Source: Escherichia phage vB_EcoM_G4507
Sequence record: NC_054919.1
Length of the DNA: 64,000 nucleotides
Reading direction: 5' to 3' (one strand)
Shown here: positions 2,237 to 8,051 of the stretch, in pieces
How positions within the stretch are numbered: the first letter of the stretch is position 1
Layout of the letters: each line of letters starts with the position of its first letter
Position numbers and translations under genes: made by a program
Notes under the pieces: generated by a model
The model's database searches: none
What the model saw: only the letters and a program-made list of their open reading frames with translations
What the model was told of the DNA's origin: nothing

Positions 2237-2830
2237 TTATTTCAGAGAATTAATGTATTCCTGAACATCGGCAGAGGTAGTTTCAACCCCAGAAATATTG
2301 CCATTAAAGGTTTCAACTCGGGCAAGAGTATCTTCAATATCAACCTTAGTCAGTGCTGCAATTTCAACTACATCATCAGCAGTACTAATTCCAAGTGCAT
2401 TCGCAGCACGAGTTTCACGGATATATTCCAATTTAACTGCAAGTTCTTGACGAGCATCATCTAACTCAACTACTTTCTTGGCGATTTCAATTCGCATTTC
2501 AGCATAACCATCAGCTTTAGTAGTCAACTGCTCAGCTGTTCGACGATATAGTAAACCGAGTTTAGCATGCATTGTTACATCTTGACCTTCAGAAAGGAGC
2601 TTGCGAATTTCGCGCTCTTTTGATTCGGCCTGCTTATTCTTTTCGACAATAAGTTCACGAATACGCTTTTCTTCGTTAATAGATTTAATGGAAGCAGTTT
2701 TTAGGTCTTTAATCTTATCAAGTAGTTTTGCTGCTGCAGCAGTATACTGTTCTTCAACAGATAGATTTTTAGCCATAGCAGAACCAAGTTTAGTGCGAAT
2801 AAACTCAACAATTTTCTTCAGTGTGTTCAT
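2237..2830 (-). CDS. coiled-coil protein, unknown function (e-region accessory ORF)
   Basis: Track ORF 197 aa; ATG at 2828-2830 preceded by AAGGAA RBS; K/E/R/L-rich sequence; early promoter immediately upstream. Confidence 0.6.
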
Positions 2831-2871
2831 AGTATTTCCTTAGGTTGATTAAAATTAAAATCCACAGAAAA

Positions 2872-2900
2872 ATTATATCATGCTATTTAAGAGATGTAAA
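2872..2900 (-). promoter_or_regulatory. sigma70-type early promoter upstream of ORF 2237..2830
   Basis: Minus strand TTTACA (plus 2895-2900) - 17 nt - TATAAT (plus 2872-2877); lies in the 3' end of the upstream ORF. Confidence 0.55.
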
Positions 2901-3391
2901 CTATTTTTAATTTTACAAATTCGTTCAGCTTCTTCAACAGCGGCAGTGATAATGCTTTTAGCTATAGGAGTACTAATACTAGTAGCTTTTACACTTAACA
3001 CGATTTCTTTATCTTTACCAGGCCAACCCCACGATTTTTCACCATGAGTGCCTTTAATTACAGCAGACACCTCAAGTGAGCATCCATTATCACATGTTTT
3101 TACATTAACAACCCAAGTGTCACTTTTCTCAACCGGTTTATCCCAGTAAATATTAAGAATACGTGGGACATCAAATTTAGCAGGGCAAATCTTAACAGTA
3201 AGACCTTCGCTTTCTAGCCAATTAATAAGAGGGCGTTCATACATGCGGCGATGTGGGCTTTGAACTCGACAAGCTTTGTACCCATTGCTTGCGGCTTCAC
3301 TAAGCTCTTCTAATACCTGCTTTTGCATTATTGATAAGATACCATCAAAAGATTTTTCGGAAGTTTCATTCAGTTCGGTATAAAGAGACAT
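2873..3391 (-). CDS. hypothetical protein (e-region accessory ORF)
   Basis: Track ORF 2873..3406 begins at a TTG; first ATG (MSLYTELNE) at 3389-3391 with GAGGA RBS 8 nt upstream; early promoter upstream. Confidence 0.55.
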   Translation of the reverse strand: MSLYTELNETSEKSFDGILSIMQKQVLEELSEAASNGYKACRVQSPHRRMYERPLINWLESEGLTVKICPAKFDVPRILNIYWDKPVEKSDTWVVNVKTCDNGCSLEVSAVIKGTHGEKSWGWPGKDKEIVLSVKATSISTPIAKSIITAAVEEAERICKIKNSLHLLNSMI

Positions 3392-3409
3392 AACAGTTTT
3401 CCTCAAATT

Positions 3410-3446
3410 ATAGGCTCATAATATCTCAATCATGAGCCTATGTAAA
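3410..3446 (-). promoter_or_regulatory. early promoter with flanking 10-bp inverted repeat, upstream of ORF 2873..3391
   Basis: Minus strand GTTTACA (3441-3446) - 17 nt - TATTAT (3418-3423); inverted repeat ATAGGCTCAT / ATGAGCCTAT at 3410-3419 and 3432-3441. Confidence 0.6.
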
Positions 3447-3447
3447 C

Positions 3448-3711
3448 TTATTTCATATTATTGAAATATTCTTCTGCAATTTCGTCGTTATCATGATAAA
3501 CTTTAGAAGACAGTTTAACATAACCTTCAGCAGTGAACATGTTAATCACAACCTTTACAGTATACCACTGACCATCTTCATTACCCATTACTGCGTAAGT
3601 TTCAAACATCGGATGATCAGGACCGATAACTTTAATATCATTCACTGTACGACCAAAATCTTCTGAAACACATTTCATAAAGAAGTTGAACAGTTCGCCG
3701 TAATTATCCAT
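3448..3711 (-). CDS. hypothetical protein (e-region accessory ORF)
   Basis: Track ORF 3448..3723 begins at TTG; first ATG (MDNYGELF) at 3709-3711 with GGAG RBS; early promoter upstream. Confidence 0.5.
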   Translation of the reverse strand: MDNYGELFNFFMKCVSEDFGRTVNDIKVIGPDHPMFETYAVMGNEDGQWYTVKVVINMFTAEGYVKLSSKVYHDNDEIAEEYFNNMK

Positions 3712-3754
3712 TTCATTCTCCAAGTTGTTTTCTGTATCAGTAGTTGATAGTTGT

Positions 3755-3783
3755 ATAGTACCATAGAAGAACAGGGATGTAAA
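3755..3783 (-). promoter_or_regulatory. early promoter upstream of ORF 3448..3711
   Basis: Minus strand TTTACA (3778-3783) - 17 nt - TACTAT (3755-3760), A/T-rich upstream region. Confidence 0.6.
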
Positions 3784-3912
3784 CAGTTTTGTGAAAAATT
3801 TTTTAAAAAGTTTTGGGGAATTCTAGGGCAAGGAGGGGAAATTAAAGGATAGGATAATATATTATAAAGGGTAGAAACTAAATGATGCCTAGAGAGGCCT
3901 GGAAAGGCCTAG

Positions 3913-3945
3913 ATACCAAAAAGCCCCAACCTTTTGGTCGGGACT
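3913..3945 (-). terminator. intrinsic terminator after the internal protein gene
   Basis: Minus strand CCCGACC-AAAA-GGTTGGG hairpin followed by GCTTTTTGG. Confidence 0.6.
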
Positions 3946-3952
3946 AAGAATG

Positions 3953-4426
3953 TTATTTGATTTGTTTAGCAGACCAAATGCGGTCTTTAATAATTTTTTG
4001 GATGTCTTCAACATACTCGAGAGAATGAGCATGTGGGTTATCTTTAAAGCTATGAGCACGAGCTAGCTTTTGGCCTTCAGTTTTGATTACTAAAAGCTCT
4101 TTAAGGATAGCTTCATATTTGGAGATAATTCCTTTAACGATATTTTTTTCTTGTGCGACTTTAGGATCTGCTTTAGGAGCAGGTTTACCCGAAGCCTTTG
4201 CAAAAGCAGCGCCAGTAGCAACTAAACTTTTCCAGGCCATACTAACTGCATTTCCCGTAAATCCTTCCGCTTTCATGTCGCGTGCGAACTGGAATCGTGA
4301 TTCATCAGAAGCATCTTTGTAAGAATATTTACCCGCTGCAATGGCTGCTTTTGCGACAGCTTGAATTTCGGTGCTAGATGCTTCATTTAACACCGCTTCA
4401 TTTAAAAATTGAGTATATGATTTCAT
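3953..4426 (-). CDS. internal head protein (IPII/IPIII family) with N-terminal capsid-targeting sequence
   Basis: Read from internal ATG 4424-4426 (AGGA RBS) of track ORF 3953..4648; N-terminus MKSYTQFLNEA resembles the T4 internal-protein targeting sequence MKTYQEF..E-A with LxE motifs; the longer track ORF would run through a hairpin and tRNA-like RNA. Confidence 0.65.
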   Translation of the reverse strand: MKSYTQFLNEAVLNEASSTEIQAVAKAAIAAGKYSYKDASDESRFQFARDMKAEGFTGNAVSMAWKSLVATGAAFAKASGKPAPKADPKVAQEKNIVKGIISKYEAILKELLVIKTEGQKLARAHSFKDNPHAHSLEYVEDIQKIIKDRIWSAKQIK

Positions 4427-4464
4427 CTTATTTCCTGTTTTAATTTGTAGATTTAATATACTAA

Positions 4465-4472
4465 TATTTATA
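4465..4472 (-). promoter_or_regulatory. T4-type late promoter (TATAAATA) upstream of the internal protein gene
   Basis: Minus-strand TATAAATA ~40 nt upstream of ATG 4426. Confidence 0.5.
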
Positions 4473-4502
4473 CCAAAAAGCCCCAACCTTTCAGTCGGGG
4501 CT
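4473..4502 (-). terminator. intrinsic terminator at the 3' end of the structured RNA region
   Basis: Minus strand CCCCGAC-TGAAAG-GTTGGGG hairpin followed by CTTTTTGG; near-duplicate of the 3913-3945 element. Confidence 0.55.
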
Positions 4503-4808
4503 AAGCCTTGCGGCAACCTTGTCGGGGTTCCACCTGCTAAGGCAAGTGTTTGTACGAAACGCCGGGATTCGAACCCGGTTATTAAGTAGTTGACGCTACT
4601 CAATATTTTAAAAGGCCATATCTCGACCATATCCGAACGTTCCGTCAAAAACGCTACTCGGTTTACGGCAAAGATATTTCCTCGAATCGATAATTCGGTG
4701 CGCCGTTTCTGCTGTGATAGTAAAGAGCCAGAACACAGTAAAACTGTGGGAGGAAACTATACTCCAGGGAACATCAGTCCGACGACTTACCGGTAGCGAC
4801 CCGGTTTC
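4503..4808 (-). ncRNA. candidate structured small stable RNA(s) with a tRNA-like T-arm, between ORF 4809..5159 and the internal protein gene
   Basis: No convincing ORF; minus strand carries GGTTCGAATCC T-loop (plus 4561-4579) flanked by a possible acceptor pairing CGGAACG/CGTTTCG but no canonical D/anticodon arms, several short hairpins, and ends at a hairpin plus U-tract (4473-4502). Placement next to the tRNA array recalls the small stable RNAs of T4 (recollection only). Confidence 0.35.
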
Positions 4809-5177: not shown

Positions 5178-5253
5178 TGGTCGAGGCAGTAGGGATCGAA
5201 CCTACGACCCAGGACTTAGAAGGTCCTTGCTCTTCCTTCTGAGCTATGCCCCG
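5178..5253 (-). tRNA. tRNA-Arg (anticodon TCT)
   Basis: Hand-folded cloverleaf on minus strand: acceptor CGGGGCA/TGCCTCG, anticodon stem AGGAC/GTCCT, loop CTTCTAA, T-loop GGTTCGATCC, encoded CCA. Confidence 0.8.
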
Positions 5254-5257
5254 TAAT

Positions 5258-5333
5258 TGGGGTGACCGATGGGAGTCGAACCCATGACTACGAGAATCAC
5301 AATCTCGAGTTCTACCAACTGAACTACGGCCAC
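5258..5333 (-). tRNA. tRNA-His (anticodon GTG)
   Basis: Minus strand 76 nt: acceptor GTGGCCG/CGGTCAC, D-stem GTTC/GAAC, anticodon stem CGAGA/TCTCG, loop TTGTGAT, T-arm ATGGG-TTCGACT-CCCAT, encoded CCA. Confidence 0.8.
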
Positions 5334-5447
5334 ATTAATACCTACTCCAACAATCATGATGTCTTCACACGAAATTAAGAGAAGAGTGATCAGTTCAACC
5401 CCTATAATCGCGTCAAGTAGATATTAATGTGACAGTTGTCACAAATT

Positions 5448-5522
5448 TGGCGGACGTGATAGGATTCGAACCTATAACCAATCGCTTAACAGGCGATCGC
5501 TCTGCCATTGAGCTACACATCC
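5448..5522 (-). tRNA. tRNA-Asn (anticodon GTT)
   Basis: Minus strand 75 nt: acceptor GGATGTG/CACGTCC, anticodon stem ATCGC/GCGAT, loop CTGTTAA, T-loop GGTTCGAATCC, encoded CCA. Confidence 0.8.
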
Positions 5523-5526
5523 AAAT

Positions 5527-5613
5527 TGGTGGGGAGTGATGGAGTCGAACCACCCGAGTCGCAATGACAATGAATTTACAGTCCACATCGCTACCTCTAC
5601 GGGATAACTCCCC
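5527..5613 (-). tRNA. type II tRNA with long variable arm, probably tRNA-Tyr (anticodon GTA)
   Basis: Minus strand 87 nt: acceptor GGGGAGT/ACTCCCC, anticodon loop CTGTAAA on a stem with two G-U pairs, variable-arm hairpin GTC-ATTGC-GAC, T-arm GGTGG-TTCGACT-CCATC, encoded CCA; D-arm fold is non-canonical, so isotype is tentative. Confidence 0.55.
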
Positions 5614-5619
5614 TTAATT

Positions 5620-5694
5620 TGGTGGCCCTGGGTGGAATTGAACCACCATCTGGCGATTATGAGTCGCTTGCTTGAACCTTCCAGCTACAGGGCC
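5620..5694 (-). tRNA. tRNA with anticodon CAT (elongator Met, or Ile if C34 is lysidine-modified)
   Basis: Minus strand 75 nt: acceptor GGCCCTG/CAGGGCC, anticodon loop CTCATAA, T-arm GGTGG-TTCAATT-CCACC, encoded CCA. Confidence 0.7.
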
Positions 5695-5695
5695 T

Positions 5696-5771
5696 TGGTG
5701 CTGATTGACGGAATCGAACCGCCGACCTTCTCATTACAAGTGAGTTGCTCTACCTACTGAGCTAAATCAGC
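5696..5771 (-). tRNA. tRNA-Thr (anticodon TGT)
   Basis: Minus strand 76 nt: acceptor GCTGATT/AATCAGC, D-stem GCTC/GAGC, anticodon loop CTTGTAA, T-loop GGTTCGATTCC, encoded CCA. Confidence 0.8.
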
Positions 5772-5776
5772 AAAAC

Positions 5777-5866
5777 TGGCGGAGGCGATAGGATTTGAAC
5801 CTATGAGTCGCCGGAGCGACTGCCGGTTTTCAAGACCGGTGCATTAAACCACTCTGCCACGCCTCC
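5777..5866 (-). tRNA. tRNA-Ser (anticodon TGA), type II
   Basis: Minus strand 90 nt: acceptor GGAGGCG/CGCCTCC, anticodon stem CCGGT/ACCGG, loop CTTGAAA, long variable arm, T-loop GGTTCAAATCC, encoded CCA. Confidence 0.8.
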
Positions 5867-5868
5867 AG

Positions 5869-5942
5869 TCTCCATACAAGGATTTGAACCTTGGACCTCC
5901 TGATCCCAAATCAGGCGCTCTACCAAACTGAGCTACACGGAG
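5869..5942 (-). tRNA. tRNA-Pro (anticodon TGG), CCA not encoded
   Basis: Minus strand 74 nt: acceptor CTCCGTG/TATGGAG (two G-U), anticodon stem CCTGA/TCAGG, loop TTTGGGA, T-loop GGTTCAAATCC; 3' end followed by CTGG, not CCA. Confidence 0.75.
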
Positions 5943-5952
5943 TAAATTAAAT

Positions 5953-6026
<74 letters not shown>

Positions 6027-6031
6027 AAATT

Positions 6032-6118
6032 TGGTGCGAGAAGTGAGACTCGAACCCACAAGGAAATAATTCCGCAGCATTTTAAGTGCTGTGCCTTTAC
6101 CAATTTGACCATTCTCGC
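6032..6118 (-). tRNA. tRNA-Leu (anticodon TAA), type II
   Basis: Minus strand 87 nt: acceptor GCGAGAA/TTCTCGC, anticodon stem CAGCA/TGCTG, loop CTTAAAA, long variable arm, T-arm GTGGG-TTCGAGT-CTCAC, encoded CCA. Confidence 0.8.
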
Positions 6119-6119
6119 G

Positions 6120-6192
6120 CTGGGAATAAAGGACTCGAACCTTTGCATCCTGGAATCAAAATCCAGTGCCTTACCAACTTGGCTAATTCCCA
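6120..6192 (-). tRNA. tRNA-Gln (anticodon TTG), CCA not encoded
   Basis: Minus strand 73 nt: acceptor TGGGAAT/ATTCCCA, anticodon stem CTGGA/TCCAG, loop TTTTGAT, T-arm AAAGG-TTCGAGT-CCTTT; only 1 nt separates it from tRNA-Leu. Confidence 0.75.
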
Positions 6193-7631: not shown

Positions 7632-7651
7632 TTTATTCTCCTCAGTAGTTG

Positions 7652-7688
7652 ATAGGGTAATAGTATCACAACTAAAACCCTATGTAAA
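7652..7688 (-). promoter_or_regulatory. early promoter with flanking inverted repeat, upstream of ORF 7446..7631
   Basis: Minus strand CACAAAGTTGTTTACA (-35 at 7683-7688) - 17 nt - TACTAT (7660-7665); inverted repeat ATAGGGT/ACCCTAT at 7677-7683 and 7652-7658. Confidence 0.6.
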
Positions 7689-7992: not shown

Positions 7993-8013
7993 TTTATTTT
8001 CCTAATTAATTTT

Positions 8014-8051
8014 GATGAGGTAATAGTATCACTACCTCATCAGCATGTAAA
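8014..8051 (-). promoter_or_regulatory. early promoter with flanking 9-bp inverted repeat, upstream of ipI
   Basis: Minus strand CACAAAGTTGTTTACA (-35 at 8046-8051) - 17 nt - TACTAT (8023-8028); inverted repeat GATGAGGTA/TACCTCATC at 8033-8041 and 8014-8022. Confidence 0.6.

Follow-up and report, generated by a model that had tools for sequence, protein, structure and literature searches.

The window analysed here is a 64,000-nt stretch of the genome of Escherichia phage vB_EcoM_G4507 (NC_054919.1), and on its minus strand, between the stop codon of one small gene and the start codon of the next, a predicted early promoter is packed into a perfect inverted repeat. The question raised by this locus is what a hairpin does across a promoter: it could end the upstream transcript, hide a ribosome-binding site, bind a repressor, do nothing at all, or form part of a larger unit. 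We are fairly confident of the last of these, with the DNA from the e.8 stop codon to the next ATG being a composite regulatory cassette of the PeSL (promoter-early stem-loop) type that would combine a promoter, a hairpin insulating against read-through and a portable patch of homology.

The locus and the anatomy of the element

Megablast of window positions 2800-4000 returned 545 phage records, the best of them Tequatrovirus genomes that are 98-100% identical (top matches ECP52, KMB23, RB51, RB68, wV7 and RB32), and by these matches the window is that of a T4-like phage of the RB51/wV7/RB32 type. The minus-strand gene order in the annotation of the best relatives is e.8, RB32ORF130c, e.6, e.5, and that of T4 at the same locus is e.8, e.7, e.6. 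Pfam and PHROG searches with the proteins flanking the element gave matches solely to families of unknown function. A literature search for e.7 and e.8 gave no match, and a T4 omics paper mentions neither gene.

Table 1. Features of the e.8-downstream element and its neighbours (window coordinates)
Feature	Position	Strand	Remark
e.8, upstream gene, 87 aa	3448..3711	-	annotation of RB51/wV7/T4 homologues; phrog_2678
e.8 stop codon TAA	3450-3448	-	from the sequence
-35 element GTTTACA (hexamer TTTACA 3446-3441)	3441..3447	-	directly 3' of the e.8 stop
5' arm ATAGGCTCAT	3432..3441	-	reaches 3429 as ATAGGCUCAUGAU in the RNA fold
-10 element TATTAT	3418..3423	-	17 nt from TTTACA; in loop/3' arm of the repeat
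3' arm ATGAGCCTAT	3410..3419	-	reaches 3422 in RNA; spans about -8 to +2
Shine-Dalgarno GAGG	3401..3404	-	5 nt past the hairpin, 9 nt before ATG
Downstream gene, RB32ORF130c type, 172 aa, function unassigned	2873..3391	-	variable cassette in place of T4 e.7
Next early promoter TTTACA-17-TATAAT with TG, without hairpin	2872..2900	-	upstream of e.6; promoter in wV7 annotation
Replaced segment, nonhomologous to T4	2858..3395	-	blastn of window against T4; sequence comparison

Read along the minus strand, the element runs ...AAT ATG AAA TAA, GTTTACA, TAGGCTCAT, GATTGAGATATT, ATGAGCCTAT, AATTT, GAGG, AAAACTGTT, ATG (3391), and as a cassette of about 60 bp it fills the gap between the e.8 stop (3450-3448) and that ATG (Table 1). 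The arms form a perfect 10-bp inverted repeat and stand 12 nt apart; the 5' arm starts with the final base of GTTTACA, and the hairpin begins 7 nt downstream of the e.8 stop codon. The repeat finder and the fold extend the stem to 13 bp, with one G.T pair (G.U in RNA), a 6-nt loop and 5 of the 13 pairs G-C. An earlier note on this DNA had described GTTTACA-17-TATTAT within a 10-bp inverted repeat, and the sequence bears this out. Its coordinates are exact save that the -35 element ends at 3447 and not 3446, and two details of its description have to be adjusted: the promoter does not overlap the e.8 stop codon but lies directly beside it, and the arms do lie around the -10 element, but the latter is partly in the loop and has 2 nt in common with the 3' arm.

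In a promoter scan, TTTACA-17-TATTAT matched the sigma-70 consensus at 10 of 12 positions, and the -10 element had no TGn extension, since the bases that precede TATTAT are AGA. The site has the traits of T4 early promoters, namely a GTTTAC -35 region, a spacer of about 17 nt and a TAnnnT -10, and the AT-rich 3' end of e.8, TTTCAATAATATGAAATAA, occupies the UP-element position. At the homologous site of SA21RB (GenBank OL960580), an early promoter and a rho-independent terminator (TransTermHP/WebGeSTer) are annotated as overlapping. That annotation as a T4 early promoter, together with the fit to the T4/PST PeSL consensus given below, supports the proposal that ORF 2873..3391 has a putative early-type promoter, which by analogy with the RB49/phi1 PeSLs would be active.

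Two further features of the surroundings were recorded. The window has 11 tRNA genes at 5178-6192 (Arg, His, Asn, Tyr, Met/Ile-CAU, Thr, Ser, Pro, Gly, Leu and Gln) versus 8 in T4; the extra His, Asn and Tyr tRNAs, flanked by tRNA-Arg and the Ile-CAU tRNA, stand where T4 has the homing-endonuclease gene segB. ARAGORN also reported a 94-nt 'tRNA-Lys (ttt)' at 4552-4645 on the minus strand; this stretch aligns at 96.6% with the T4 region bearing rnaC (species 1 RNA) and is probably a tRNA-like small stable RNA rather than a genuine tRNA.

Chance, conservation and probable selection for pairing

Perfect 10-bp repeats with a loop of 3-30 nt number 9 in the 64-kb window, versus 3.3 +/- 1.8 expected from first-order Markov simulations. 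One such repeat alone is unremarkable at this length, and it is the placement of the repeat that is not due to chance. Six GTTTACA-17-TAnnAT sites lie on the minus strand of the window, and a hairpin crosses the -10 element at three of them, 8051, 7688 and 3446, with energies of -17.4, -13.2 and -18.0 kcal/mol that are reached by fractions of 0.000, 0.013 and 0.000 of random 43-nt windows, respectively. The other three have no hairpin, so the hairpin is dispensable for promoter function. Folding of the upstream gene's transcript, which the earlier note had proposed as a check, gave the 13-bp hairpin: the 38-nt core folds as RNA at about -18 kcal/mol, a value reached by none of 3000 background windows, the 86-nt region at -22 kcal/mol (z = -3.6) and the element core as DNA at -8.5 kcal/mol (z = -5.6). 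No known RNA family turned up when 3200-3700 was scanned against Rfam with a permissive E-value; the sole match, to the S15 leader, scored 15.9 bits where the gathering score is 39.5 and is a sub-threshold chance match.

Elsewhere in the window, a promoter lies in a hairpin at two more sites, P_ipI (8013-8042, -17.4 kcal/mol) and P_trna.4 (7650-7682, -13.2 kcal/mol), both on the minus strand. Their architecture is identical to that of the e.8-downstream element, as had been claimed for the ipI-region promoters at 8051 and 7688, and it is conserved in T4. P_trna.4 and the element have GTTTACATAGG...CCTAT in common, and a longer homologous cassette, TTTCACAAAGTTGTTTACAT ... GTGATACTAT ... CTATCAAC, is common to P_ipI, P_trna.4 and P_e.8, the last being GTTTACA-17-TACTAT at 3783 on the minus strand in the promoter scan. 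By blastn, the P_e.8 region of the window aligns with the P_trna.4 region of T4 at about 75% identity. T4 itself (NC_000866, L003 in our set) has an early-type promoter, GTTTACT-17-TAGTAT, just downstream of gene e at about 66498 on the minus strand, whose -10 element lies between the arms of a perfect 8-bp inverted repeat, AATTGTGA / TCACAATT, with an energy of about -8 kcal/mol.

The conservation on which the earlier note had made its reading depend is present: the element occurs as a single copy in 376 phage records (55-nt query), and in T4 promoter and repeat are identical and lie between e.8 and e.7; the 3' end of e.8 occurs in 564 records. Most relatives are very close, however, which makes conservation alone weak evidence. 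From IMG/VR, metagenome and GenBank loci we gathered 12 distinct versions of the element; the metagenome scan, made with the AT-rich 19-mer of the e.8 3' end, gave mostly chance matches and, after filtering, a handful of genuine e.8 loci. Over these 12 variants, 97.4% of the cells of the 13-pair helix are standard pairs, and in a control in which the 3' partner was slid by 1-3 columns pairing falls to 27-44%. Two-sided changes are found at two pairs, pair 2 (T:A<->C:G; U:A in 4 sequences, C:G in 2, U.G in 3 and C-A in 2) and pair 3 (A:T<->G:C; A:U in 8 sequences and G:C in 4). The covariation score, which comes from 12 sequences with two variable pairs only, was matched in 10 of 500 column shuffles, and together these data are modest but positive evidence of selection for pairing in the arms. 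Since both U.G (the sense-strand wobble) and C-A intermediates occur, selection at the RNA level and at the DNA level are not separable here.

Pairing is retained in genera in which the e.8 protein is merely 80-87% identical to that of the window. At the same site, the spacer in phages of the RB3/CM8 type holds a stem of 6-7 bp, AACACC(A)/(T)GGTGTT, which reaches into TGT-TATTAT, and the relative L010 has GAGGAC/GTCCTC flanking TATAAT, both repeats being unrelated in sequence to the window element. The two compensatory pair changes among the 12 variants and the unrelated repeats at the same place therefore support the suggestion in the earlier note that structure rather than sequence is conserved. 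They also weigh on the view that the repeat is a chance palindrome or a neutral hitch-hiker in a conserved promoter. About three perfect 10-bp repeats are indeed expected in 64 kb, but chance would have to explain a repeat that coincides with a promoter at three of six sites, two compensatory double changes, pairing that persists across such diverged e.8 genes and the same architecture built from independent sequences in RB3/CM8 and L010. We regard this view as disfavoured, with a probability close to negligible.

Two relatives keep the stem where the -35 element has decayed, to GCGTACA in L007 (phiE142-like), whose hairpin carries a compensatory G:C pair, and to GTTTATA in L127, which hints that the stem may be kept up independently of promoter strength. 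The T4 reference has an ambiguous base, N, within the 5' arm of the hairpin (NC_000866 position 70346, L003 position 4347), where all relatives have C on the sense strand; it may be a legacy sequencing compression due to the hairpin.

Symmetric changes of half-sites in DNA would also appear compensatory, and the repeat is centred on the -10/spacer, a classical position for a repressor. It has thus to be considered whether the repeat is a DNA operator at which a dimeric phage or host protein, bound across the -10 element, turns the promoter off, possibly as part of the early-promoter shut-off of T4 that reviews describe as not understood. Against this, the three promoters of this one genome have three different repeats (ATAGGCTCAT, TGATGAGGTA and ATAGGGT), the repeats of relatives are unrelated and stand in different registers, half of the GTTTACA promoters lack a repeat, positions with G.T or T.G are tolerated and no candidate protein is known. 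We consider an operator very improbable.

Predicted transcript start and fate of read-through RNA

Taking the usual 7-nt distance from the -10 element, transcription is predicted to start at A3411, one base before the end of the 3' arm; the corresponding T4 position is about 70323 on the minus strand of NC_000866. With the start inside the 3' arm, which ends at +2, the hairpin is possible only in read-through RNA, and RNA initiated at the promoter itself would begin AUAAUUUGAGG... and lack it. Based on starts placed in the same way, the 3' arm likewise ends at +2 at the ipI and trna.4 promoters, and it ends at -1 in the L010 variant. The composite cassette that we favour would then work as follows. 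The promoter, of the host sigma-70 type and T4 early class, would start transcription at about A3411 and provide the accessory gene that follows with a leader of its own, unstructured and with its Shine-Dalgarno sequence free, while RNA reading through from P_e.8 and from the promoters of the tRNA region would form the 13-bp hairpin past the e.8 stop. By analogy with the RB49/phi1 PeSLs, the most likely role of this hairpin would be to insulate the transcription units from each other; it could attenuate or pause read-through, or stabilise the e.8 message as a barrier at its 3' end.

A start inside a structure means that two RNA species differ in whether the hairpin forms, and this is the same logic as that of T4 gene e, where a hairpin masks the ribosome-binding site and transcription from an internal promoter avoids it (review PMC3014915). 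A gate of this type, in which the hairpin of the read-through RNA hides the ribosome-binding site and only RNA from the internal promoter is translated, was tried as a candidate and rejected. In folds of the own and of the read-through transcripts the helix stops 5 nt before the Shine-Dalgarno sequence and does not pair with it, leaving it and the AUG outside, and the predicted local fold from Shine-Dalgarno to AUG is the same in RNA from 3411 as in read-through RNA from 3520, which makes the gene e mechanism inapplicable. The internal promoter is moreover of the early and not the late class. We rate this explanation as extremely unlikely.

A stable hairpin from 7 nt past a stop codon also suggests a simpler reading, namely that it is just the rho-independent terminator of e.8, with the promoter packed into the same intergenic space by chance. 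The terminator called by TransTermHP/WebGeSTer at the homologous site of SA21RB is in line with this, as is the stem-loop of an RB49 PeSL, whose termination in a reporter equalled that of rrnB T1 (PMC2839356). The stem is not followed by a U-tract, though: U accounts for 3 of the first 8 nt in the window, 1 of 8 in T4 and 2 of 8 in the relative L004, and the tail varies (AAUUUGAG, ACAAAUGA and AGCUUGAG, respectively) while the stem is conserved, so that a canonical intrinsic terminator is unsupported. The site is missing from the consensus terminator scan, and the fixed register of the arms against the -35 element and +1 in three promoters would be left unexplained. Since ORF130c, e.6, e.5 and the genes beyond have the same orientation, full termination is also unneeded. 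We regard a plain terminator as unlikely; of the terminator or attenuator role proposed earlier, the part that stands is a hairpin confined to read-through RNA, with which such a role fits, and the part that does not is a canonical terminator.

The same register can be read in another way, as something selected in its own right that keeps the hairpin out of the promoter's own RNA and includes it in read-through RNA. In one version it could be a 'transcript-origin tag', by which read-through RNA alone is sent to pausing, processing or decay; in another, at the DNA level, the structure could be a specific recombination signal rather than a mere homology patch. This reading is speculative, and we give it a small probability.

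Gene replacement at the element and its relation to known cassettes

Downstream of the same element, relatives have four arrangements: an ORF130c gene (the window, RB51, wV7 and L127, with a diverged form in L007), e.7 (T4, L004, L049 and L103), a JS10-like gene with the start MNIEDKEMQ (SA21RB, L008, L009, L011, L012 and L104), or a deletion straight to e.6 (L006, L013 and L079). By blastn against T4, homology covers 3396-3947 and 2202-2857 and breaks at 3395/3396 and 2857/2858. The upstream break falls where the promoter-hairpin-SD cassette ends, 4 nt short of the ATG, and the downstream break lies within the early-promoter/SD region of e.6, whose promoter (2900-2872) is the other boundary of the swapped cassette. 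In the composite cassette proposed here, the conserved DNA would be a portable patch of homology, and recombination at the patch, by analogy with the RB49/phi1 PeSLs, would swap the downstream gene between phages with expression undisturbed.

The product of ORF 2873-3391 is itself a mosaic, with residues 1-88 matching phrog_18312/phrog_3012 and residues 90-163 matching phrog_8232, and at the DNA level the 3' half of the ORF is homologous (about 84%) to that of the JS10-like gene found in the same slot in SA21RB and IME341; recombination therefore takes place within the coding sequence as well. A different kind of exchange is seen nearby. A 36-nt direct repeat, 92% identical between its copies at 3913-3948 and 4470-4505, flanks a segment of about 520 bp (about 3949-4469) that is absent from T4 and carries a gene of the RB32ORF132c type (ORF 3954-4427, minus strand); the RB51 annotation likewise notes a '34 bp imperfect direct repeat'. 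Each copy holds a strong terminator-like hairpin followed by TTTTT, and the segment looks like a cassette gained or lost when duplicated terminators recombined, in parallel to the swaps at promoters.

PeSLs, which keep small accessory genes of T4-like phages apart and help in their exchange, were defined in RB49 and phi1 by Arbiol et al. 2010, who found them concentrated in hyperplastic regions at the boundaries of indels and replacements, recorded promoter and terminator activity with reporters and inter-PeSL recombination by detection of mini-circles, and saw the stem-loop most often overlapping the -10 or in the space from -35 to -10 (PMC2839356). Comeau et al. 2014 added those of the pair T4 and PST, whose promoter consensus is TTTACW-N17-TAYWAT; in that paper, the stem-loops of PST are 'just upstream' of the promoter (Fig. 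3 legend), and an AGNA...TCNT stem motif is 'often' present in PST/T4 PeSLs and not strictly defining, as the authors stress the variability of the stems (PMC4122927). Analogous elements, with T4 early promoters and AT-rich stem-loops, were described in the IP loci of T-even phages by Repoila et al. 1994, as summarised in PMC2839356 and PMC4122927.

By its features the e.8-downstream element is an ordinary member of this published class, and it is also present unchanged in T4. Every feature that defines the class at the sequence level is found here: the element sits between the e.8 stop and the next ATG; TTTACA-17-TATTAT fits TTTACW-N17-TAYWAT exactly; TTTCAATAATATGAAATAA is an AT-rich region, with 17 of 19 bases A or T; the 13-bp stem of -18 kcal/mol spans the -10 element; GAGG (3404-3401) and ATG (3391) close its 3' end; and the site is a replacement boundary, with four downstream arrangements and the T4 breaks described above. 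The AGNA-loop-TCNT motif is absent from the stem ATAGGCTCAT/ATGAGCCTAT. The class and the gene-replacement boundary are what the earlier note had missed.

As a clean and well-conserved example of a published regulatory and recombination cassette of phages, the element adds little to what is known of the class. For annotation it is useful in marking an early promoter, the place where the downstream transcript would begin and one edge of a swappable slot (e.7, ORF130c, JS10-like or empty). With its natural compensatory hairpin variants and a well-sampled replacement hotspot, it is also a compact test case for the role of PeSL hairpins in attenuation, in protection and stability of RNA 3' ends or in recombination, a question that concerns the whole class and has been tested in RB49/phi1 only.

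Compared with known systems, the element is like the leader hairpins of T4 e, soc, 49 and I-TevI in that the start lies inside the hairpin repeat and the structure exists in read-through RNA only, but those leaders have a late internal promoter and a helix in which the SD/AUG is sequestered, whereas the element has an early promoter and an SD that lies beyond the helix. Rho-independent terminators have the same stable stem-loop shortly after a stop codon, and the element differs from them in lacking a conserved U-tract and in being followed by genes that continue in the same direction. The T-even IP-locus cassettes, as summarised in the later papers, combine T4 early promoters with stem-loops that are AT-rich and variable in size and flank shuffled small genes, as here, in the IP loci rather than in the e.8/e.7 region. 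The T4/PST PeSLs belong to the same phage group and have the same promoter consensus and association with swapped ORFs, but their stems are 'just upstream' of the promoter and frequently carry AGNA...TCNT, which this stem does not. The RB49/phi1 PeSLs present the same series of stop codon, AT-rich region, sigma-70 -35/-10 with 17-nt spacing, stem-loop overlapping the -10, SD and ATG, likewise in a hyperplastic region and at the boundaries of insertions, deletions and replacements between related phages. They differ in having near-perfect TTGACA/TATAAT hexamers and stems with G/C tracts (GGGG...CCCC), in place of GTTTACA and a mixed stem, and in that terminator activity and mini-circles are known for them, while the element is known here from its sequence. 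Within the window, the ipI and trna.4 promoters (8051 and 7688) hold their hairpins in the same register as the e.8-downstream element.
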